From: Candidatus Micrarchaeota archaeon | Lineage (GTDB): Archaea > Micrarchaeota > Micrarchaeia > Micrarchaeales > Micrarchaeaceae | Reading direction: 5' to 3' | DNA length: 64,000 bases | Assembly: GCA_027365565.1 (NCBI GenBank) | Contig: DAHXMI010000004.1 | Span: 71,142 to 135,141 of the forward strand | Shown: in pieces, positions 12,661-62,892 of the stretch | Position numbering within the stretch: position 1 is the stretch's first letter | Layout of the letters: each line of letters opens with the position of its first letter | Made by a program: the position numbers and the translations under genes | The notes under the pieces: generated by a model | The model's database searches: none | The model's input: only the letters and a program-made list of their open reading frames with translations | What the model was told of the DNA's origin: nothing

Positions 12661-14724
12661 TCAAGTGAGGACGTAACCGTTCCCTATGAAGCTGTATCCT
12701 GGGGATGTTATCACGTCATATAGCCTGAATGCACCCATCTTGCCAGTCTTGACCTGGAGTGCTGTCACAGGCACGTTGAGCCCGGTCAGCGGGTCGTACA
12801 GCGTGTCACCCACTTTCATATTGGCTGCATTCTGCATCGTGCCGTTTATTTCGAGGTACTCGCCACCGTCCACTATGAGTTGGCCGTTGTTTATTATTAT
12901 CTCATTGTTGGTCGGCCTCGGATATATGCCTGAAACCGCTATTGGCGCGACCGATTTGGTATTGATATTGTAACCCAGTATTATCTGTCCGGGCTTCAGA
13001 TTTGATATTTGGGTGGCTACTCCATTCAACCCGTACACGTACGTTGCGCCTCCTGTGGAGCTGCAGGTGTCGGTAACCTTGTCTATCAGGTAGCCGTCAG
13101 CAATGAAGTTGTTGTTGGGTACGGCAAGGAAATCGTACACCGTATGGCCGCTCTGCAGCGTCTTCGCGCTTATCGATGTTATCTCTACGCTTTTGTTCAG
13201 CAGCGGATCGAAGAGCGTGTCGCCCAACTTCGCGGAGCCTGCAGGCTGCCACTGGCCGTTTATGAACATGATCTCATTTTTGTCTACGCTGAGGTTGCCA
13301 TTGAAGGTGTACTGGCTTGTCGTGTTGTGCTGGTATACTGCCACAACTACCGAGGGAGTCAGCTTACCTGTCTTGGTGTTATACGAAAGTATTACCGTGC
13401 CCGTCCTGATGCTTGATGCGTTGGCGATCCCACTGTTGGGGAGCGACACCTGCGCGTTGCCGTAGACCGAGCATCCTCCATCGGAGCTCACAGTAGTCGA
13501 TGTTGTCTTGGTTGTCGAAGTGGTTGACTGGGTCGTAGTGGATGTGGTTGTAGTGGACGTGGTCGTAGTGGTTGATGTAGTGGTCGTAGTGGATGTGGTT
13601 GTAGTGGACGTGGTCGTAGTGGTTGATGTAGTGGTCGTAGTGGATGTGGTTGTAGTGGACGTGGTGGTGGATGTGGTGGTGGAGGTTGTCGTGGTGGATG
13701 TTGTTGTTGAGGTTGTAGTGGACGTGGTGGTGGATGTGGTGGTGGAGGTTGTCGTGGTGGATGTTGTTGTTGAGGTTGTAGTGGACGTGGTGGTGGATGT
13801 GGTGGTGGAGGTTGTAGTGGACGTGGTGGTAGAGGTTGTCGTGGAGGTCGTGGTGGAGGTTGTCGTGGAAGTGGAGGTGGACGTTGTCGATGTTGACGTA
13901 GATGAGACCAGTATGGTAGTTGTTACTGGTATGAACGTGAACGTGGCCGTTAAGGTGGCGTTGCCCAGGCTGTCCAATATGGTATTCTGCGCGTTGGGGT
14001 TCTGCAGCGTCGAAGGCGAGTTGACCGTCCAAGAATTGAACCTGTATCCGCCTGGCGGTATCGCATATAAGCTGTGGTTGCCCTGCCTGAGCAGAATCGA
14101 GGTTGAATTGTGGTATATTGAGCCGTTAATCGAAACAGAGCCGGTCGGCGGGCTTGTAACTACTTTCAATAGGTACAGGTTGTACGACAGCTCTTGAAGG
14201 GTTTGCACTGATGAGCCGGTAGAGGTATAGGACTGTGCAGCGCACGTTGATGAGGATGCACCGCTGCACACCTGATAGCTTATTCCGAAAGACGTGGAGA
14301 ATTCGGTGCCGCTCTGCGCAGTTATGTTTGGTATCTCTGCCCTGCATATGACAGGCGTACCGGTTGGTGCGAACGTAGGCGTACAGTTGCCTAGATAGTG
14401 CGAGGTCGCCGATGATCCTGGTCCACTAGTCACGGTAACATTCATCGAGTTTGCGGTGAAAAGCATGCCCGTGCCTAGATCGTTGGTGAAAATAATGGTG
14501 AATTTCGGCGTGGCCACTGAATTATATGATAGTATGCTCTGCGCGCACGGGAACGAAGGCTGGATGTTGCAAGATGCTGGCAGATAGGTTGAAGGCCTGT
14601 TTAGGTACGATGCGAGGAATATTACGCCGAGGAAAACAGCTATTATTATGAGTACCCATGCATACGTTACTATGAATTCCAAGGCTGACTGCTGTCGCTT
14701 CGAGTGAGCCTTACTTTTGAACAT
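12661..14724 (-). CDS. Large surface protein: pilin-like (class-III-signal-like) N-terminus, Cys-containing Ig-like region, ~135-aa poly-Thr/Ser stalk, and two tandem C-terminal Hint (Hedgehog/intein-like, BIL-type) domains
   Basis: N-terminus is KRQQSALEFIVTYAWVLIIIAVFLGV; the QSALEF motif is typical of archaeal pilin-like proteins. The stalk has repeated TTTS units. Two repeats start with Cys and contain a GDTL(F/Y)DPL block, ending TVYDFLAVPNNNFIADGYLIDK and RLYDVITSPGYSFIGNGYVLT*. These resemble intein blocks A/F/G. Confidence 0.65.
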   Translation of the reverse strand: MFKSKAHSKRQQSALEFIVTYAWVLIIIAVFLGVIFLASYLNRPSTYLPASCNIQPSFPCAQSILSYNSVATPKFTIIFTNDLGTGMLFTANSMNVTVTSGPGSSATSHYLGNCTPTFAPTGTPVICRAEIPNITAQSGTEFSTSFGISYQVCSGASSSTCAAQSYTSTGSSVQTLQELSYNLYLLKVVTSPPTGSVSINGSIYHNSTSILLRQGNHSLYAIPPGGYRFNSWTVNSPSTLQNPNAQNTILDSLGNATLTATFTFIPVTTTILVSSTSTSTTSTSTSTTTSTTTSTTTSTTTSTTTSTTTSTTTSTTTSTTTSTTTTSTTTSTTTSTTTSTTTSTTTTSTTTSTTTSTTTTSTTTTTSTTTTTSTTTTSTTTTTSTTTTTSTTTTSTTTQSTTSTTKTTSTTVSSDGGCSVYGNAQVSLPNSGIANASSIRTGTVILSYNTKTGKLTPSVVVAVYQHNTTSQYTFNGNLSVDKNEIMFINGQWQPAGSAKLGDTLFDPLLNKSVEITSISAKTLQSGHTVYDFLAVPNNNFIADGYLIDKVTDTCSSTGGATYVYGLNGVATQISNLKPGQIILGYNINTKSVAPIAVSGIYPRPTNNEIIINNGQLIVDGGEYLEINGTMQNAANMKVGDTLYDPLTGLNVPVTALQVKTGKMGAFRLYDVITSPGYSFIGNGYVLT
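13508..13905. repeat. Tandem DNA repeat (about 60 to 75-bp units made of 12-bp ACC/ACT-rich subunits) encoding the poly-Thr/Ser stalk
   Basis: Units such as gtggatgtggttgtagtggacgtggtcgtagtggttgatgtagtggtcgtagt recur several times on the + strand. Confidence 0.8.
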
Positions 14725-15759: not shown

Positions 15760-16524
15760 TTAGGATTTCTTTTCCTCTCCGCTTTCGGGATCGGAGCTTT
15801 TCCCTTCCGCTTTCTCTTCCGGTTTCGTTTCCGGCTTTGCCGCAGCGGCCACTTCGGCCGGCTGGGCTGCCGGCTCCTCCTCCTGCATGCGCGCGGGCCT
15901 CGGAGCAGAGGCATCCATCCTCGCCTCGAAGTCTGATATCTTGTACGTGAACTCTTCGTCGGCCTTTATCGCGCCCTTCGCCTTGAGTGTTTCCCTTGCG
16001 AGGAGGTAGTAGATGAACGCGAGCGACCTCCTTCCGCGGTTGTTCGCAGGTATGATCAGGTCCACGTACTTTATCAGGTTGTCCGTGTCGCAGAGCGCTA
16101 TTATCGGGATGTTGACCTTGCTCGCCTCCTTGACGGCCTGCTTCTCGTTCCTGGTGTCGCTTATGAGTATGAGCTTCGGCTCCTGGAAGTCTTCCCTGTT
16201 CGGGTTTGTGAATACTCCGGGCTTGACCCTCCCGCGCATGAATCCTGCGCCTATTATCTGGGCGAGCTTCTCGGCCGCTGCCACCGCGTATATCCTCGAT
16301 GCTGTCACGACTATGTCCTTCGGGTCGTACTTCGCAATCATGTTGGCGGCCAGCCTTATGCGGCTGTCTATCGTCTTCAGGTCGAGCAGGTAGAGTCCGT
16401 CGTCCCTCGTCTTGTATATGAACCTCTTCATCCCCTGCATCTTGGACTTAGACGCGATGTGTATGCCAACCTCGAGGTACTCGTTCTGGTTGGCAAGCAG
16501 CTGTTGCTCTTCTTCAGTCATCAT
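15760..16524 (-). CDS. rps2: 30S ribosomal protein S2 (uS2) with acidic C-terminal tail
   Basis: NEYLEVGIHIASKSKMQGMKRFIYKTRDDGLYLLDL...IPIIALCDTDN is a typical uS2 core. Confidence 0.9.
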   Translation of the reverse strand: MMTEEEQQLLANQNEYLEVGIHIASKSKMQGMKRFIYKTRDDGLYLLDLKTIDSRIRLAANMIAKYDPKDIVVTASRIYAVAAAEKLAQIIGAGFMRGRVKPGVFTNPNREDFQEPKLILISDTRNEKQAVKEASKVNIPIIALCDTDNLIKYVDLIIPANNRGRRSLAFIYYLLARETLKAKGAIKADEEFTYKISDFEARMDASAPRPARMQEEEPAAQPAEVAAAAKPETKPEEKAEGKSSDPESGEEKKS

Positions 16525-16552
16525 TCAACACCGTGATATTTTCGATTTCATG

Positions 16553-16652
16553 TGGGGCCGCCGAGATTTTCAGGCGAGCCTTTTTTTCAGCCTTTTGAAC
16601 TCGGGTCGCTACCACCCCAAGGTAGAAGCCTACCAAGCTAGCAGACGGCCCC
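16553..16652 (-). tRNA. tRNA-Pro (anticodon GGG) with a ~27-nt non-canonical intron inside the T-loop (position about 59/60)
   Basis: Hand-folded on the minus strand. Acceptor GGGGCCG/CGGCCCC. D-loop AGCTTGGTA. Anticodon stem CTACC/GGTAG with loop TTGGGGT. T-stem CCGAG/CTCGG flanks TTCAAA[27-nt insert]T. Removing the insert restores a canonical TTCAAAT T-loop. The intron lies at about 16567..16593. Confidence 0.7.
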
Positions 16653-16674
16653 GCATGCATTATTTTGTCATCAA

Positions 16675-16690
16675 CCTTTAAATTAATTAA
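16675..16690 (-). promoter_or_regulatory. BRE/TATA element (TTAATTAATTTAAAGG on the minus strand) about 30 nt upstream of tRNA-Pro
   Basis: Strong A/T box at the canonical distance from the tRNA 5' end. Confidence 0.55.
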
Positions 16691-16722
16691 CGCCTCCCGC
16701 ACGCTTATTTCTTACTTGCTTC

Positions 16723-16923
16723 CTACTTCCTTCCGAACTTTATTATCTCGTCTATCAGCTCAACGTTGCCGATGAACATACGTCTGCAGCAGTAGCGCTT
16801 AACTCCAAGGGCGTCCAGCACCTTGCCGGAGTCCTCGTGCTCCTGGTTGACCCTGCGGTCGTACTCCTCCCACTTGTCCGCGACTACTGCGCCGCACGTG
16901 AAGCACCTTACCGGAATCATCAT
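16723..16923 (-). CDS. rpoN: DNA-directed RNA polymerase subunit N (Rpb10 homologue)
   Basis: [14 protein letters not shown]...RYCCRRM is a zinc-bundle signature. 66 aa. Confidence 0.9.
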
Positions 16924-16957: not shown

Positions 16958-17551
16958 TTATCTGTAAGATGTCTGGAACCTCGCACGGGCCTTCGGGCCC
17001 TTGTACTTCTTCGGCTCCACCCTCCTGTAATCGTCAGTTAGAAGGTACTTGCTGTGAGACGCGTAGAGCCTCCTTATAGAGTCGCTGCCCGTGTATTCTA
17101 TTATTCCCTTCGCTATAGCGTTCCTCGCCGCCTGCGCCTGCGAGCTGAATCCCCCGCCGCTCACGCTTACGCTTATGTCGACCCTGTTGGCCAGCTCGGC
17201 CGTTATGTCTGACATCCTTATCGGCTCCATGACAACCGAGACGAGGCTCTTCTGCGGGAACGTGCTTATGTCGAAGCCGTTTATGCGCACCGCGCCGTGC
17301 CCCTCCTTTATCGCGGCCCTTGCCACCGCCTCCTTCCTCTTGGCATGGACCAGCACGTGCTTCACGCCCTTCTGCTTCTTCTTCGCCGGAGCGGCAGATG
17401 TGGATGCTGACGATGCGGCCGCGCCTTTCGCGCGCGGCGTCCTCTTCGCCTTCTTCTCGGGCTGCGCTGCTGCTACCGCAGTTGCCGCGGCTGGCTGTTC
17501 TGCCGCCGAAACCTTTGCCGTTTCAATCGCTTCTTCTGCCATTATCGTCAC
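16958..17551 (-). CDS. rps9: 30S ribosomal protein S9 (uS9) with a ~60-aa Ala/Lys/Pro-rich N-terminal extension
   Basis: The C-terminal core is ...GGGFSSQAQAARNAIAKGI...RRVEPKKYKGPKARARFQTSYR. The N-terminal extension is low complexity, so the true start may be internal. Confidence 0.85.
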   Translation of the reverse strand: MTIMAEEAIETAKVSAAEQPAAATAVAAAQPEKKAKRTPRAKGAAASSASTSAAPAKKKQKGVKHVLVHAKRKEAVARAAIKEGHGAVRINGFDISTFPQKSLVSVVMEPIRMSDITAELANRVDISVSVSGGGFSSQAQAARNAIAKGIIEYTGSDSIRRLYASHSKYLLTDDYRRVEPKKYKGPKARARFQTSYR

Positions 17552-17555
17552 TTCT

Positions 17556-18044
17556 TTATTTCTCGAACTTGTTGTAGCCGAGAGCCTTCGAGAGCTCCGA
17601 GATCCTCGTGTACCTTACATAGAGCTTGTCCGGCTCCTTGCCCTTGTATTCGACCGGCTTCACACCCTTGAACTCGTCCGGCACGCCCATGAACACCCTG
17701 AGCAGCCTGAACGCGGTCTTGCCCTTCGGTCTGTGATAAGGCAGCATGCCCCTCACTACGCGCTTCACGAGCATGTCCGGCCTCCTCGGCCAGTACGGCG
17801 AGTGCTCTGGGTTAGCCTTGTCCTGGAGATCCAGCCTAGTCTTGTACTTCGCCGTGAGCACTTTCGGATCCCCTGTTATTATCGCAGATTCGGCGTTTAT
17901 TATCGCTACCTTCTTGCCTGCCAGCAGCTCCTTCGCCGCGCTCGTCGCAAGCCTGCCGAGCACCTTCTCAGTTGCGTCGAAGACTACGTAGTCGCCGGCC
18001 TTTTCCTTGCCTTCCTTTGGCTTCGTGAGCTTCATGATCATCAC
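17556..18044 (-). CDS. rpl13: 50S ribosomal protein L13 (uL13)
   Basis: VVFDATEKVLGRLATSAAKELLAGKKVAIINAE is a uL13 signature. Confidence 0.9.
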   Translation of the reverse strand: MMIMKLTKPKEGKEKAGDYVVFDATEKVLGRLATSAAKELLAGKKVAIINAESAIITGDPKVLTAKYKTRLDLQDKANPEHSPYWPRRPDMLVKRVVRGMLPYHRPKGKTAFRLLRVFMGVPDEFKGVKPVEYKGKEPDKLYVRYTRISELSKALGYNKFEK

Positions 18045-18433
18045 ACTATGAGTTTTGCGTTCTTCGCCTTCAAGGCCTCCGCGAGGGGGACCAGGCTGCA
18101 GTTCGCCTTCTTCAGCTCTTTCCTTGCCGATTCCGAGAGCTCCATCGCGGCTATGCTCACCTTGTGGTCCATCGAGCCTATCGACAGGACCTTTCCGGGA
18201 ACTATGACCGCGTCGCCCTCCTTCGTGCTTCCGTTTATCCTGAATATGTTGACGCTTGGCCTCTGCCTTGAGGGCTTGCCAGCGAACTTGTATATCCTCT
18301 TCGAGAGGCCTGCGCGCTCCTTTGAAGAGCGCATCGCCTCAAGCTCCGCAAGCCACTTAACTACTACATCCTTTTCCGGTTGCTTCCTCATCAGCTGCAC
18401 CTTTCCTTTGCGGAGGGTGAGATTTGAACTCAC
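18041..18433 (-). CDS. rpl18e: 50S ribosomal protein L18e (eL18)
   Basis: PGKVLSIGSMDHKVSIAAMELSESARKELKKAN is characteristic of eL18. It sits at the conserved position between rpoD and L13. Confidence 0.8.
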   Translation of the reverse strand: MSSNLTLRKGKVQLMRKQPEKDVVVKWLAELEAMRSSKERAGLSKRIYKFAGKPSRQRPSVNIFRINGSTKEGDAVIVPGKVLSIGSMDHKVSIAAMELSESARKELKKANCSLVPLAEALKAKNAKLIV

Positions 18434-18502
18434 GCAGTCACTAAAGACACTGACCCCTCAAGCCAGCGCATTTGGCCGGGCTCTGCCACCTCCGCGTGAA
18501 TC

Positions 18503-19081
18503 TCAGAGCTTCTTGACACCTTTCTCGACGTCCTTGAGCTCTTGTTTTATTACCTCCAAAGCCTTATTAACTATTTCCTTGGGTGGCATCTGGCCAAATG
18601 TCTCAACGTAAAACTCATATGTGTCATCGTTCTTCATTTCATAAGTGATTAGGCCTGGCTGGAACTTAGCATGCTTGATCCCCATGCCCATGACCGCCTT
18701 GCCCTCGAGCCTCAGCTTCTGCTCATCGTCCAGTTTCATTATTGGTATGTCTCCGTTCGCGACCTTGACCACCTTGTCTGCCGTGTCGAGGTCCCTGGAA
18801 TAAGCGGTGCCCTTGCCCTGCTTGTCAAGCGTGAACAGTATCTCGTCTGTATCGCTGTATCCCTTCGAAGGAGTCAGTATTGGTATGAGCCCGAGCCTGT
18901 GCGCTATGTACTCGTCAAACATCGAGGTCGTATTCTCGTGTATCGTCACCTTGTCGATCGCGAATGTCTTGACGCTGTTCATCGCGATCCTTCTCAGCGC
19001 GTTGGCAGTCGCATGGTTCGTGCCGCTGAGCCTGAACCTGAACGTCTTGTCATTGTCCTCGAGGATTTCGATCTTCATCAA
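18503..19081 (-). CDS. rpoD: DNA-directed RNA polymerase subunit D (Rpb3 homologue), short form without Fe-S domain
   Basis: 192 aa. Dimerisation-domain motifs are present (ANALRRIAM, HRLGLIPI). The sequence contains no cysteine at all. Confidence 0.8.
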   Translation of the reverse strand: MMKIEILEDNDKTFRFRLSGTNHATANALRRIAMNSVKTFAIDKVTIHENTTSMFDEYIAHRLGLIPILTPSKGYSDTDEILFTLDKQGKGTAYSRDLDTADKVVKVANGDIPIMKLDDEQKLRLEGKAVMGMGIKHAKFQPGLITYEMKNDDTYEFYVETFGQMPPKEIVNKALEVIKQELKDVEKGVKKL

Positions 19082-33814: not shown

Positions 33815-33914
33815 GGTCGTGCTGGGATTCGGCAGTTGTCGAAAACAGGATGGACAGAGCTCACGCTAAGGCCTTTTTCAAAAGAAAAAAGAAAGATCAG
33901 AGAAGAGATTCGCA

Positions 33915-36750
33915 GATTAGACTTTAGTAACGGTATGTTCGCAGCTCGCGTGAGCTCGCTGCTTACGCACCCGTCCTATCAAAGCCGTCTATTGCGGCCG
34001 TCCTAGTGCCTCGTTTCGGGTAGGGCTTCGTCCTTAGATGCTTTCAGGGCTTATCCCCTTGGCGCGTGGCTACCCGGCAATGCTTACACAACCGGTAGAC
34101 TAGAGGCGCCGATCCCCCGTTCCTCTCGTATTAAAGGGATCTTATCCTCCGGCACTTACACTTCCAGTAGTTACTACCGTACTGTCTCGCGACGTACTGA
34201 ACGCAGCTCACGTGGGTTTTTAATGGACTTCAGTCCAACCCTTGGCTGCTTGTGCACAGCCAGGATAACCCGAGCCCATAACGATGTATCGAACCGCCGG
34301 GTCGATGTGGACTCTTACCGGCGACGAATCGGTTACCTCTAGAGTAACTTGTTTGGCAGACTGGAGCCCCATTAAAAGAGCTACCAGCGATCACATAAGC
34401 CCCTCTTTCGAGTCTGCGCCCCATGCTTTTAGAGGCACAGTCAGCCCCGCATTTGCCTTTATGTTTGAGGGCGGGTTTCCAACCCGCCTAAGCGGAGCAT
34501 AGGACACCTTCGTTTCTTTATAGAAGGCAGCCGTCCAGCCCAACTACCCACCTGCAGCTGTTCCTCACGGTTAGCCACGAGATAAGCTAAGAGTGGTGTT
34601 ACATTGTCGCTCCGCGCGCGCCGCAGCGCGCGCCTCGACGCTCCCACTTACGCTATGCATAACACATCTCATGACAACTACAGGCTGTAGTAAAGTTTCA
34701 TAGAGTCTTCTTTACCCACTGGAAGATCGCGGCATATTCACCGCGTAGTGAGTTCACCAGATCCAATGTTGGGACAGCAGGGGGATCGTTACGCCATTCA
34801 TGCAATCCGCCACTTAAGCGGCTAGGTATTACGCTACCTAAAGAGAGTCAGAGTTACTCCCGCTCTTTGCCAGCGCTTACTCCCGTTGAAACGGGTATTC
34901 ACGTACTGGCGGTGAGCAGGCGTCACCCACTGTACTTAGCGTTTCCGCTTTGCGGTGAGTTGTGTTTTAGATAAACAGTCGTCCCCCTCTTGTCAGTGAC
35001 ATCTGCGCTTCCTAAACGCAGACATGGTTTGTAGAAAACATACACCACTAATTTGCCGATTTCCCTAACATCGGTTATTCTGACACACCTCGGCCTTTTC
35101 AGCCAGCAACACTTTTAATAGATCTAGGTACGGACTTGTGTGATCGTTGCGGATTCCCTTTTCACGGGATCAGGAATTCAGTCCAAGTTCATTTAGTCGC
35201 TTCTCCTCATAACGAGACTCCACGACCATTTGCACGTTCTTTCGGACCTATCCCCAACCGTCAGAAATCTGCCTTGCGTTGCCGCTCCTACACACAAGGG
35301 GCAGGAATATTAACCTGCTTCCCTTTTGCTGCACTGTGGTTGGCGTGCAGCTTAGGATCGCCTAACCCTCCGCTGACAAGCGTTGCGAAGGAAACCGTGT
35401 GCTTAAGGTGTACGGGATTCTCACCCGTATTGGATATTACTAACACCAGGATATTCTCTGCGATACGGTCCACACGTCCTCTCGAACGTGCTTCTTGCCA
35501 TACCGCACGCCATCTTACCTATGCTTTCGCATATCGGGGTCTCGGTACCTGATTTAGCCCCGTATATCTTGAGCTGGAAGAATCTCAATCGGTCCGCTAT
35601 TACGCGTTGTTTAAAGGGTGGCTGCTTCTGAGCCTACCTCCCGACTGTCTATGAAACTTCCGGCCTTTGACACACTCAATCAGGATTTTGGGACCTTAAC
35701 CTCGATCACCGTCGTTCCGGTCTCGCAATGTTGGCTTACCCAGCATTGCCGACTCCAAGGGTCTACACAGCACGTGCATTCGGAGTTTGACAAAGAGGGG
35801 AGGCCTCTCGACCCCTTACCTCCTAATCGGTAGCTCTACCTCACGTGCAAGCTCGCCTTGAGCTATCCTAAAGATACTTCAGATGGGACCCGCTATTGCC
35901 ACGCTCGAATGGTTTATCGCCGCTACCCGCAGCTCGCCCAACAGGTTATACCATGACAGGTGGCGGACCTCCACCAGGCGTTAGCCTAGCTTCGTCCTGG
36001 CCGCGCGTAGTTCGCAGTGGCTTCGGGTCGTATAACAGTGACTTTGGCATTTTCATACCATGCGCCTCGTCTAGGACTGCGCGCTATCGCTTTCGCTCCG
36101 CCTTTCGGCTCGCCACTACCATACACTCCCTGGCTCTTGCTTCAAGAAGAATGATAAGACACTGGTCCATGCGCCTCGCTGGACGCTTTCGCGTCCTAGC
36201 TTCGGCACACTTCTACCCTTTCGTGCCTTACCTGCTTGTAACTGCCTAGTTTCAGATCTGATTTCACCCGCACGCGTGTGCGTTCTTTTTAACTTTCACT
36301 CACGCTACTCGTACGCTATCGGTCTATAGTCAATATTTAGGGTTGGGGTTTAATGCCCCCGTATTCGCACCGAATAATCAGCCGGTACTACTCGCTGCAG
36401 CTATCGCCAACACACTTAACCTACGAGGCTGTCACTCTCTATGGCCGCGCTTTCCAACGCGATCGGCTCATGTGCTGGCTGAATATCGCTACACCACATC
36501 TCCGTACCTTTTACAAGGACGGATTCAGTTCGCCCTGTGCGGCTTTCATTCGCATTACTTACCGCATCGAATGCTCTTTCTTTTCCTGCGGGTACTAAGA
36601 TATTTCAGTTCCCCGCGTGCGCATGCCTGCTTACGCAGGCACAATTCGGCAATCCCGGGTTCAAAGCCTGACTTGCGGCTACCCCGGGCTTATCGCAGCT
36701 TGCCACGGCCTTCATCGCTACTATAGCCTAGTCATCCCCTAGGCAGCTTA
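33915..36750 (-). rRNA. 23S (large subunit) ribosomal RNA, standalone (no linked 16S/5S within the window); ends approximate
   Basis: Conserved LSU blocks on the minus strand: GCAAGCUGCGAUAAGCC near the 5' end (+36700 region), CUGAAAGCAUCUAAG near the 3' end (+34040 region). The flanks can pair as a processing stem (GCGAATCTCTYCTC at 33896 to 33910 and 36765 to 36780). Confidence 0.9.
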
Positions 36751-36912
36751 AATTTTGCGAATCTCTCCTCCTCACATCAATCATGCAAACAGCACGATAT
36801 CACAAAGATTGATACTGCTCAATGCCAAGCTTTCAAATGCAGAAGCATAAAAAGATCAGGCTTCAGCATGTCATGGGCATAAGAGCACCGCAATATATTG
36901 AAGCAACAAGGT

Positions 36913-38902: not shown

Positions 38903-39589
38903 CTACTTGTTCCCGTTAATCTCCTTGCCCAGAAGGTAGAGCTCTGCCGCGAGCTTAGTGCTCGAGACGCTGTGGAGTATCAGCCTGCCCTTTCCTGTGA
39001 AGTTCGCCAGGAATAGGCCCATGCCGCCGAACATCGCGGTGCGCACGTTGTCTACTCCTCTTATAGAATAGTTGAGCTGCGAGTCGAAAGCGGCTATGTG
39101 CCCAGGATCCACTTCTATATGGTTCGTACCGTCAAGGTCGTGGCTTATCGTGTCTCCTATTACGTGTATGAACACCCTTCCCGGGCCGGAGAACTTCTGC
39201 AGCATGAGGCCCGCCCCTCCCCATATGGCCGCACCGAGGCTCACCCTCTGCAGGGTAAAGCCGACTGTGGATTCGACGGCAAGCAGCGCGTTGTGCTCGA
39301 CCGCGAGCCCCTGGCCGGGATCCAGGTTTACTTCCACGACCTTGCCAGGCAGGGTTCCGCTGACGGACACGATGCCCTCGCCGTTCTTCGACTGGAACTC
39401 GGTAAGCATCGCCGTGGACCCGGTTGCCTTCCTTTCGACGGCTTTCAGCAGGCCGCCAGCGAGCTTCGGAGTCATCTGTATGTTGTCGCTCTTGCTCAGC
39501 AGATGACCCGAATCCGCGTACACCTTCTCACCCTCCTCGAGTATAACGTTAAGGGCCTGCATGTTATCCCCCACTATCTGGTATTTCAT
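38903..39589 (-). CDS. AIM24/TIGR00266-family (DUF124) protein
   Basis: MKYQIVGDNMQALNVILEEGEKVYADSGHLL fits the family pattern. The start is set at Met11 of the track ORF. Confidence 0.6.
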   Translation of the reverse strand: MKYQIVGDNMQALNVILEEGEKVYADSGHLLSKSDNIQMTPKLAGGLLKAVERKATGSTAMLTEFQSKNGEGIVSVSGTLPGKVVEVNLDPGQGLAVEHNALLAVESTVGFTLQRVSLGAAIWGGAGLMLQKFSGPGRVFIHVIGDTISHDLDGTNHIEVDPGHIAAFDSQLNYSIRGVDNVRTAMFGGMGLFLANFTGKGRLILHSVSSTKLAAELYLLGKEINGNK

Positions 39590-39651
39590 TGCCTCACCAC
39601 GGCATGCATTGTCTGCCATGGTTTAAAACCCTTTCAGGGAAATACAATTTC

Positions 39652-40899
39652 ATGCAGAGGTTTTCAAAGTCGCCGCGGCAGGCGGCAGTTTTTAAGGGTA
39701 CGCCGGATGATTTCGTTGTCGAGGAGATAACGAAATCGGGGCACATACTGGAAGTGGGTAGGAGATACGACGCGGATGCGGCCGGAGATGCCCAATCTGA
39801 CGAGGGCAGGTTCGCAGTCTTCGTTTTGCAGAAGAGGGACTGGAACACCGCGCAGGCGCTGATCAGCATAGCCAACGCGTGCGGCCGCGGCAGGAAGTCT
39901 GTGGGCTTTGCAGGCACCAAGGACAGAGCATCAGTATCGACGCAGCTCTGCAGCATATTCGGCGCGGACCCTGATGCAGTCAGCAGGGTCCAGATCAAGG
40001 ACCTCGCAGTAAACGGCGCGTGGAGGGGTAAGGAAGGCGTGAGGCTTGGCGATCTGAAGGGCAACAGGTTCACGATAACTGCTAGGGGGGCGGCCGACGT
40101 GCGCGCGATAGAGGTTATAAACAACGAGCTTGGCGGGATATTCCCGAACTACTTCGGCGAACAGAGGTTCGGCTTCAGAAACAACAACGTGGAGATAGGC
40201 ATTGCGATAATGAAGGGGGATTTTAGGAGCGCGGCAATGTCGTTCCTGACCAATTCCGAGAACGAGACTAAGGCCGAAGCGGTCGAGGCAAGGAAAAGAC
40301 TTGGGGAGGAGCAGGACTTCACGAAGGCGCTGGAGTACTTTCCGAGATACCTGAAGTACGAGCGCACCATTCTGGGCCACCTTGCACAGCATGGCACCGA
40401 TTTCGCCGGTGCGATAAGAAAACTGCCGAGGCAGCTCTCCCTCATGTTCGTGCATTCCGTGGAGAGCGACATGTTCAACAGGGCCATTGAAGCCAGGGTG
40501 CGGAATGGTGCGGTGGCTCCGGACGCCGGCGACACCGTATGCAGCACGGACGGCAACGGCTGGCCGGATATCACGAATGCGCATGCAGCTGCGGCCTCCG
40601 AGAAGGGAGCATTCCTCCTCGGCAACATAATAGGGTACAATACACAGGACGTCGATGCATACGAGAAAGAGGTCCTCGAATCGATAGGTATTGAGCCAGG
40701 CATGTTCAGGTTGAAAGGCATGCCGGAGTTGAGCTGCAAGGGCACGAAAAGAATGCTGTTCGCGCCTTACCTGGATTTCAAGGCGGACGGGGCAGGCACA
40801 GGTTCGGGCGATACTGTGCTCAGTTTCTCCCTGCCGTCCGGTTCATACGCCACGGTGCTGCTCGATGAATTCTTTGAGCGCAAGCCCATGGACATTTGA
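39652..40899 (+). CDS. truD: tRNA pseudouridine synthase TruD (Pus7-like)
   Basis: Catalytic motif GFAGTKDRASVSTQ (GxKD) and the FPNYFGEQRFG motif. I chose the start at MQRFSK. Confidence 0.8.
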   Translation: MQRFSKSPRQAAVFKGTPDDFVVEEITKSGHILEVGRRYDADAAGDAQSDEGRFAVFVLQKRDWNTAQALISIANACGRGRKSVGFAGTKDRASVSTQLCSIFGADPDAVSRVQIKDLAVNGAWRGKEGVRLGDLKGNRFTITARGAADVRAIEVINNELGGIFPNYFGEQRFGFRNNNVEIGIAIMKGDFRSAAMSFLTNSENETKAEAVEARKRLGEEQDFTKALEYFPRYLKYERTILGHLAQHGTDFAGAIRKLPRQLSLMFVHSVESDMFNRAIEARVRNGAVAPDAGDTVCSTDGNGWPDITNAHAAAASEKGAFLLGNIIGYNTQDVDAYEKEVLESIGIEPGMFRLKGMPELSCKGTKRMLFAPYLDFKADGAGTGSGDTVLSFSLPSGSYATVLLDEFFERKPMDI

Positions 40900-42714: not shown

Positions 42715-42839
42715 CGCCAGGGTTGGGATTTGAACCCAAAAGTCCTTGCGGACACCGGTTTGCCTGTTGCATCACTATTCAGCTCTCGAAGTTTTTGCAA
42801 TCTCGAGACCGGCGCGATACCGGATTCCGCCACCCTGGC
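42715..42839 (-). tRNA. tRNA-Ser (anticodon CGA) with a ~41-nt canonical intron after position 37
   Basis: Acceptor GCCAGGG/CCCTGGC. 3-bp D-stem GCG/CGC with an 11-nt D-loop. Anticodon stem CCGGT/ACCGG enclosing CTCGAG[intron]A. Long variable arm GTCC-GCAA-GGAC. T-arm TTGGG-TTCAAAT-CCCAA. Discriminator G. Confidence 0.8.
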
Positions 42840-62764: not shown

Positions 62765-62856
62765 GGGCTCGTGGTCCAACGGTATGATGCCAAGTTCTTT
62801 CTGAACGCATAAGCCTTACACGCTGGAGACAGGGGTTCGACTCCCTTCGGGCCCAT
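62765..62856 (+). tRNA. tRNA-Val (anticodon UAC) with a ~20-nt non-canonical intron in the anticodon stem (position about 29/30)
   Basis: Acceptor GGGCTCG/CGGGCCC plus A. D-arm GTC-CAACGGTAT-GAT. T-arm AGGGG-TTCGACT-CCCTT. Removing about 62793..62812 gives anticodon stem CCAGC/GCTGG with loop CTTACAC (U33, A37). The overall pattern matches archaeal tRNA-Val. Confidence 0.6.
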
Positions 62857-62892
62857 TCAGGTTTTAACATGCCGGACTCAGGCACAACTACT

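Follow-up and report, generated by a model that had tools for sequence, protein, structure and literature searches.

Introns in the T-loop of Micrarchaeota tRNA-Pro(GGG) have been known since 2011, when Fujishima et al. (NAR 39:9695, Fig. [quoted passage not shown] In the same work, the three-unit epsilon2 splicing endonuclease (EndA) of ARMAN-2 cut the 13-nt 59/60 intron of pre-tRNA-Cys(GCA) in vitro; in the phylum, direct biochemical evidence on such substrates is limited to this cleavage (PMC3239211). A review places 29/30, 53/54 and 59/60 among the known non-canonical intron positions (PMC4090602); the tRNA-Thr of Aeropyrum pernix offers one example of a non-canonical intron (PMC3241643). 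In Crenarchaeota/Thermoproteales and in Nanoarchaeota, too, introns at positions such as these depend on a bulge-helix-bulge (BHB) and on endonucleases of broad specificity (PMC4090602). However, the endonuclease there is an (alpha-beta)2 heterotetramer rather than the three-unit epsilon2 form of Micrarchaeota, and the phyla are unrelated.

The gene described here is a single-intron relative of the published ARMAN-2 case. It was found in a window of 64 kb (the whole stretch of DNA that was analyzed), where it occupies the 198-nt gap at 16525–16722 between two minus-strand genes: rpoN (RNA polymerase subunit N; 16723–16923, PF01194, E = 4.7e-30) upstream and rps2 (ribosomal protein S2; 15760–16524, PF00318) downstream. 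According to the ORF list, the Pfam matches and the tRNA calls, the surrounding operon reads, on the minus strand throughout, rpoD (18503–19081), tRNA-Leu(GAG) (18409–18495), L18e (18041–18433), L13 (17556–18044), S9 (16958–17551), rpoN, tRNA-Pro and S2. The position of tRNA-Leu before L18e agrees with the order in other archaea (PMC10833476).

Some details of the neighboring genes deserve a mention. The best homologues of the S2 protein are from Micrarchaeota/Micrarchaeia (DPANN); its Pro/Glu/Ala/Lys-rich C-terminal tail of ~50 aa is absent in most relatives, which cover ~80% of the query. S9 is extended at its N-terminus by ~70 aa rich in Ala and Lys, and its Pfam match begins at residue 71. 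The mechanically predicted L18e ORF (GTG start at 18433, minus strand) shares 25 nt with tRNA-Leu(GAG), which makes a start further downstream probable for L18e.

The minus-strand sequence of the gap has the form ...TTAATTAATTTAAAGG...GGGGCCG...CCGAG TTCAAA[AGGCTGAAAAAAAGGCTCGCCTGAAAA]T CTCGG CGGCCCC A. The pre-tRNA-Pro(GGG) within it is 100 nt long (16553–16652, minus strand), from G1 to the discriminator base A73, with CCA not encoded: GGGGCCG UC UGCU AGCUUGGUA GGCU U CUACC UUGGGGU GGUAG CGAC CCGAG UUCAAA [27 nt] U CUCGG CGGCCCC A. Direct reading of the sequence gives the acceptor stem, GGGGCCG/CGGCCCC, and the anticodon GGG (16616–16618), whose loop is U32 U33 G G G G37 U38. The 5' exon (positions 1–59; 16594–16652) supplies the 5' strand of the acceptor stem, the D-arm, the anticodon arm, a 4-nt variable loop, the T-stem strand CCGAG and the T-loop bases U54–A59, while the 3' exon (16553–16566) supplies U60, the T-stem strand CUCGG, the acceptor strand CGGCCCC and A73. 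The initial annotation had proposed a tRNA-Pro(GGG) in this gap, with a T-stem CCGAG/CTCGG and a T-loop TTCAAA[insert]T opened by a 27-nt insert, and every one of these elements is present as claimed.

Neither ARAGORN (with and without the -i option) nor the Rfam tRNA model (E ≤ 10) called a tRNA in the raw, unspliced gene. This is a limit of the tools and does not count against the tRNA: ARAGORN -i and the Rfam model miss the gene because its intron lies in the T-arm. Upon removal of the insert at 16567–16593, ARAGORN called a 73-nt tRNA-Pro(ggg) with a normal cloverleaf (stems of 7, 4, 5 and 5 bp, 7-nt anticodon and T loops, U33, G37 and A73). The joined exons proved identical at 73 of 73 positions, including bases 1–59 contributed by the 5' exon, to an intronless gene found at the same rpoN–S2 locus in another Micrarchaeota genome (locus L030). 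When both strands of the window were scanned for cloverleafs, the tRNA-Pro gene was the only additional match of its type outside coding sequence, and the scan returned no further non-coding candidates.

The bases of the archaeal ProRS identity set (G35, G36, A73 and the pair G1:C72, together with anticodon GGG and G37) are all found in the window tRNA. The gene is a tRNA-Pro(GGG) with a T-loop intron, and its product would presumably be charged with proline. Position 10 of a tRNA is usually G; here the D-stem contains a U10·U25 mismatch (window positions 16643 and 16627), which is shared by 17 of the 18 tRNA-Pro(GGG) genes aligned from Micrarchaeota. The mismatch recalls the weak D-arms reported for the tRNA-Pro(CGG/UGG) of ARMAN-2 (PMC3239211).

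The 27-nt intron, AGGCUGAAAAAAAGGCUCGCCUGAAAA (16567–16593, minus strand), was placed at tRNA position 59/60 by splicing in silico, by comparison with relatives and by its BHB geometry. From the window sequence alone, runs of A leave the junction ambiguous from 56/57 to 59/60. However, relatives whose introns start with T permit only 59/60 or 60/61, and the BHB geometry also requires 59/60, which is therefore the intron site. The predicted spliced junction joins ...GAGUUCAAA to UCUCGG....

Around this junction, the precursor can form a strict hBHBh' motif. The outer helix is the 5-bp T-stem CCGAG/CUCGG itself. On top of it, the central helix H consists of four Watson–Crick pairs between U54 U55 C56 A57 of the exon (16596–16599) and U22 G23 A24 A25 of the intron (16569–16572), and the inner helix h' of three pairs (GGC/GCC) between G2 G3 C4 (16590–16592) and G19 C20 C21 (16573–16575) of the intron. 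Two opposed bulges of 3 nt each separate the helices: A58 A59 | A1 on the 5' side (16593–16595) and A26 A27 | U60 on the 3' side (16566–16568), where the bars mark the predicted cuts, after A59 and after intron base A27. In archaeal BHB cleavage, the cut falls after the second base of the bulge. The gene thus displays the structural features of a BHB tRNA intron, i.e., a 4-bp central helix, opposed 3-nt bulges, flanking helices of at least 2 bp and exons that rejoin to a tRNA; the BHB-compatible structure that the initial annotation had asked to be looked for at the junctions is there.

The precursor folded better than shuffled sequences (z = −2.4). The minimum free energy structure obtained with ViennaRNA favored a symmetric 6×6 internal loop over the two bulges, by ~2 kcal/mol, and the BHB fold appeared among the suboptimal structures, ~2.3 kcal/mol above the minimum for the T-arm segment. 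We nevertheless take the BHB fold, and not the 6×6 loop, to be the relevant structure: the two are within ~2 kcal/mol of each other, and the BHB fold is the one conserved in relatives.

The intron is longer than the 13–24 nt seen at 59/60 in the GGG genes of relatives. It resembles a 15-nt intron of the type found at locus L021 (AGGCGTGCCTGAAAA) plus a 12-nt internal repeat; the motif CTGAAAA occurs twice. In the closest relative (L001), the intron is only 16 nt long.

The two-intron form of the ARMAN-2 pre-tRNA-Pro(GGG) matches that of 33 related loci, Ca. Micrarchaeum sp. A_DKE (L059) among them. By contrast, the window gene has no 53/54 intron, since CCGAG runs straight into TTCAAA. Its intron shares position 59/60 with that of the ARMAN-2 pre-tRNA-Cys(GCA) (Figs. 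1B and 4B of PMC3239211), but the latter forms a relaxed hBH structure devoid of an inner helix, whereas the window intron forms the full strict motif. The arrangement also parallels the canonical intron at 37/38, despite lying in the T-arm. Because the T-arm and the anticodon arm share one layout, with 5 bp in the stem and 7 nt in the loop, 59/60 is the exact counterpart of 37/38: the T-stem (49–53/61–65) takes the role of the anticodon stem (27–31/39–43), loop bases 54–57 pair with the intron as do 32–35, and the cuts fall after the sixth and before the seventh base of the loop.

For comparison, we scanned a collection with one genome for each species and obtained 80 loci, all from Micrarchaeota, of which 77 show both rpoN and S2. 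In nearly all the loci fetched, rpoN lies directly upstream of S2. ARAGORN detected a tRNA in the rpoN–S2 gap at only 10 loci; anchoring the search on the acceptor stem, we recognized a tRNA-Pro at 74 of the 77. An intron at 59/60 is present in 61 of these 74 genes, and about half of the 61 (33 loci) have an intron at 53/54 as well. The state of the window gene, with 59/60 only, is that of 28 loci; six have the 53/54 intron only (39 relatives with a 53/54 intron in all), three are intronless on the strand of the flanking genes and four are intronless on the opposite strand. Across the 74-gene set, introns at the two sites measure 12–35 nt.

We scored the BHB for 59 of the 59/60 introns. All 59 had the central helix intact (4 of 4 bp, with UGAA, UGGA or UGAG against UUCA) and bulges of 3 nt, and in 52 of the 59 the 3' bulge was AAU. 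Elsewhere these introns are diverse, with 44 distinct cores and total lengths of 13–31 nt. When 18 single-intron genes were aligned, with the cloverleaf and the BHB imposed, 95.2% of the cells paired, versus 33–52% with slid partners. The central helix was 100% paired, all three h' pairs changed on both sides, and none of 500 shuffles reached the observed level of covariation. The identity of the exons at 73 of 73 positions, together with a structure kept through compensatory changes in 18 aligned relatives, excludes chance.

In a neighbor-joining tree of S2 and RpoN, which is rough and only indicative, the window falls next to L001, which also has a single 59/60 intron. The tree further points to an old 59/60 intron in the phylum, lost in a patchy manner, and to a 53/54 intron that is patchy as well.

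The comparison set also contained some unusual loci. The gap before S2 generally spans from 83 to ~240 nt in relatives, and in five loci (L022, L026, L029, L032 and L037) it is enlarged to 0.3–2.6 kb. In L022, L029, L032 and L037, the enlarged gap harbors an intronless tRNA-Pro(GGG) on the opposite strand; we considered whether rpoK or eno might be found there, and by eye the ORFs look unrelated (one is, e.g., short-chain-dehydrogenase-like). The gap of L026 contains only a short, probably spurious ORF. In L073, L078 and L079, we recognized no tRNA in the AT-rich gap of 83–190 nt, implying that in those genomes tRNA-Pro must be elsewhere. Finally, five deep-branching loci (L061, L067, L071, L072 and L075) present the anticodon loop UUAGGGA, i.e., a tRNA-Pro(AGG) with A34, at the same place. 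In the first four, the 59/60 intron measures 31 nt, its inner helix is long and its 3' bulge reads GC|U, while L075 has both introns, the one at 59/60 being 19 nt long. An A34 tRNA-Pro has been reported in ARMAN-4/-5 (PMC3239211).

As for transcription, the tRNA could be expressed from a promoter of its own or by read-through from rpoN. A 16-nt A/T-rich box, TTAATTAATTTAAAGG (16675–16690, minus strand), is a candidate archaeal TATA/BRE element and a plausible promoter for tRNA-Pro. Within it, TTTAAA occupies positions −29 to −24 relative to G1, a spacing well suited to an archaeal TATA box and in accord with the BRE/TATA box noted in the initial annotation 30 nt upstream; in relatives, A/T 8-mers begin most often at −36 to −30. 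In several relatives, the tRNA starts ~10–15 nt past the rpoN stop codon, implying that a separate TATA box is not needed in all of them and that operon read-through is at least as likely.

On the other side, a Shine–Dalgarno-like GGTG for S2 (16529–16532, minus strand) lies 21–24 nt after the 3' end of the tRNA and 4 nt before the S2 ATG. Most relatives start S2 13–28 nt after the tRNA, with GGTG ahead of it, and the sequence aaGGTGttnaaATG directly following the tRNA in most of them argues for co-transcription of the tRNA with rps2. Judging from this spacing, tRNA-Pro is likely co-transcribed with rpoN and rps2 and would be freed by RNase P/Z.

Very probably, then, the gap contains a functional, intron-containing tRNA-Pro(GGG) gene, whose transcript would be spliced by way of the BHB motif. 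Cleavage by EndA, ligation by RtcB and addition of CCA constitute the established route of archaeal tRNA splicing. Following that route, the motif would be built on top of the T-stem by pairing of U54–A57 with the UGAA close to the intron's 3' end. A splicing endonuclease, presumably of the three-unit, broad-specificity epsilon2 type, would cut both bulges. An RtcB-type ligase would then join the exons and, with CCA added to the 73-nt tRNA body, the mature tRNA would read CCC and CCU codons. Neither EndA nor RtcB was found among the 30 ORFs of the 64-kb window scanned by Pfam; both enzymes, like the remainder of the tRNA set, would be encoded beyond the window. Nonetheless, the genome must possess a splicing machinery, because two further tRNA genes in the window are split by introns.

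Could the 27 nt inserted into the T-loop instead have disabled the gene, leaving a pseudogene that has fallen out of use? The silence of the standard tRNA finders and of the Rfam tRNA model might be read this way, and so might the partly duplicated look of the insert, with its two copies of CTGAAAA. However, the exons match an intronless orthologue perfectly, and the geometry needed for excision is exact and is kept in all 59 scored relatives, whereas elsewhere the intron sequence varies, with compensatory changes. From base-pairing odds, we estimate that a random insert would provide both the central helix and an inner helix of 2 bp in only ~0.2% of cases. Decay of the gene is accordingly very improbable, and we give similarly little credence to the idea that the insert is never removed, be it that a tRNA with a 34-nt T-loop is functional as such or that the transcript is a mere processing signal between rpoN and rps2. 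It is true that 28 nt, containing no terminator or clear promoter, separate the tRNA from the S2 start, and that in relatives the tRNA often abuts both genes, so that its processing must shape the mRNAs. But a role of this kind can go hand in hand with normal splicing and does not compete with it. A 34-nt T-loop would destroy the core formed by the T-loop and the D-loop; the intronless orthologues (L025, L030 and L043) have a normal 7-nt loop, and the ARMAN-2 endonuclease does cleave a 59/60 intron in vitro (PMC3239211).

There remains the reading of the gap as a protein gene. A 62-aa ORF with a GTG start (16514–16702, minus strand) appears in the ORF list and spans the gap on the gene strand, so that one might suspect a small protein, e.g., a divergent RpoK. 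This is the least credible of the explanations considered. The ORF had no Pfam match at E ≤ 0.01, and specifically none to PF01192 (RpoK/Rpb6); it is wholly overlapped by the tRNA, and the variable gap length and the differing sequences and lengths of the introns in relatives would shift its frame, which is not conserved. We regard it as spurious, and the view taken in the initial annotation, that it does not look like RpoK, was borne out. Outside the tRNA, the gap offers only 70 nt and 28 nt, too little room for an RpoK of at least ~55 codons. Six-frame searches of the window for enolase and for the RpoK core motif (a regular expression) returned no enolase match and no credible RpoK match, and Pfam detected neither rpoK nor eno among the 30 window ORFs. 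The rpoK homologue that might have been sought in the gap is therefore not there by any of these measures.

The same annotation had described the tRNA as sitting where rpoK and eno are expected. That the gap contains only the tRNA is correct, but the arrangement is not a stand-in peculiar to this genome, since rpoN–tRNA-Pro–S2 is the rule in the sampled Micrarchaeota (74 of 77 loci). Having rpoK after rpoN is a fair expectation for some archaea, given the rps9-rpoN-rpoK operon of Methanococcus maripaludis (PMC10450193). In another archaeon, however, the order is S13-S4-S11-rpoD-tRNA(Leu)-L18e-L13-S9-rpoN-S2, with rpoN adjoining S2 directly (PMC10833476). Considering both this junction and the Micrarchaeota rule, the tRNA is no replacement for rpoK and eno: these sit elsewhere in Micrarchaeota, and tRNA-Pro is a resident of the locus.

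Spliced as proposed, the intron may simply be tolerated. It is conceivable, albeit unlikely, that the T-arm introns of this tRNA-Pro gene are under selection for some further role, such as a release of the tRNA coupled to splicing, or a shielding of the T-arm from integrating elements. An unspliced intron would lock U54–A57 in the BHB helix and block the T-loop/D-loop core, perhaps delaying release of the tRNA by RNase P/Z. If so, tRNA splicing would set the separation of the rpoN and rps2 messages and be coupled to the output of RNA polymerase and of a ribosomal protein. The persistence of the 59/60 intron in nearly all of the sampled phylum, its patchy loss and the tight gene spacing are compatible with such a role, albeit no proof of it.

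The tRNA-Pro gene of the window is genuine but ordinary for its lineage, and it adds nothing new in kind to the biology, since T-loop introns of Micrarchaeota tRNA-Pro(GGG) and the responsible enzyme were described in 2011. Its practical import lies in annotation: a standard pipeline would list this genome as devoid of tRNA-Pro(GGG) and tRNA-Val(UAC), although both are present in split form. Moreover, the 74 orthologues at one fixed locus, with no intron, either intron or both, make up a clean natural series for intron gain and loss, in which the exons of the window gene have an exact intronless counterpart in at least one orthologue. The series could also help to define the smallest BHB that the epsilon2 endonuclease accepts as a substrate, though its value is modest.

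The window contains six tRNA genes. Three of them are split, a figure that matches ARMAN-2, and two of the three are invisible to ARAGORN. The tRNA-Val(UAC) gene (62765–62855, plus strand) carries a 20-nt intron (62793–62812) at 29/30. The raw gene elicited no ARAGORN call and only a weak match of the tmRNA clan in Rfam (62765–62858, 15.7 bits); after removal of the intron, ARAGORN called Val(tac). Inspected by hand, this intron has a central helix AUGC:GCAU and an inner helix GUUC:GAAC. The third split gene, a class II tRNA-Ser(CGA) with a long variable arm (42715–42839, minus strand), was recognized from its Rfam score (43 bits) and by hand, and its 41-nt intron occupies the canonical site, 37/38. 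With ARAGORN -i, the gene is read out of register and reported as Ala(cgc). The central helix of the intron contains a single C/A mismatch, which makes this BHB less perfect than that of the T-loop intron.

A few other features of the window may be recorded. The only enzyme of tRNA maturation found in it is TruD (tRNA pseudouridine synthase D; 39589–40899, plus strand; PF01142, E = 4e-95). The 23S rRNA gene (33906–36764, minus strand; 2260 bits in Rfam) has neither a 16S nor a 5S gene beside it within the 64 kb analyzed, which suggests that the rRNA genes are unlinked. Lastly, a 687-aa ORF (12661–14724, minus strand) with no Pfam match contains a Ser/Thr repeat of ~190 residues, of the form (S/T)TTT...; judging by this composition, it probably encodes a surface or secreted protein.
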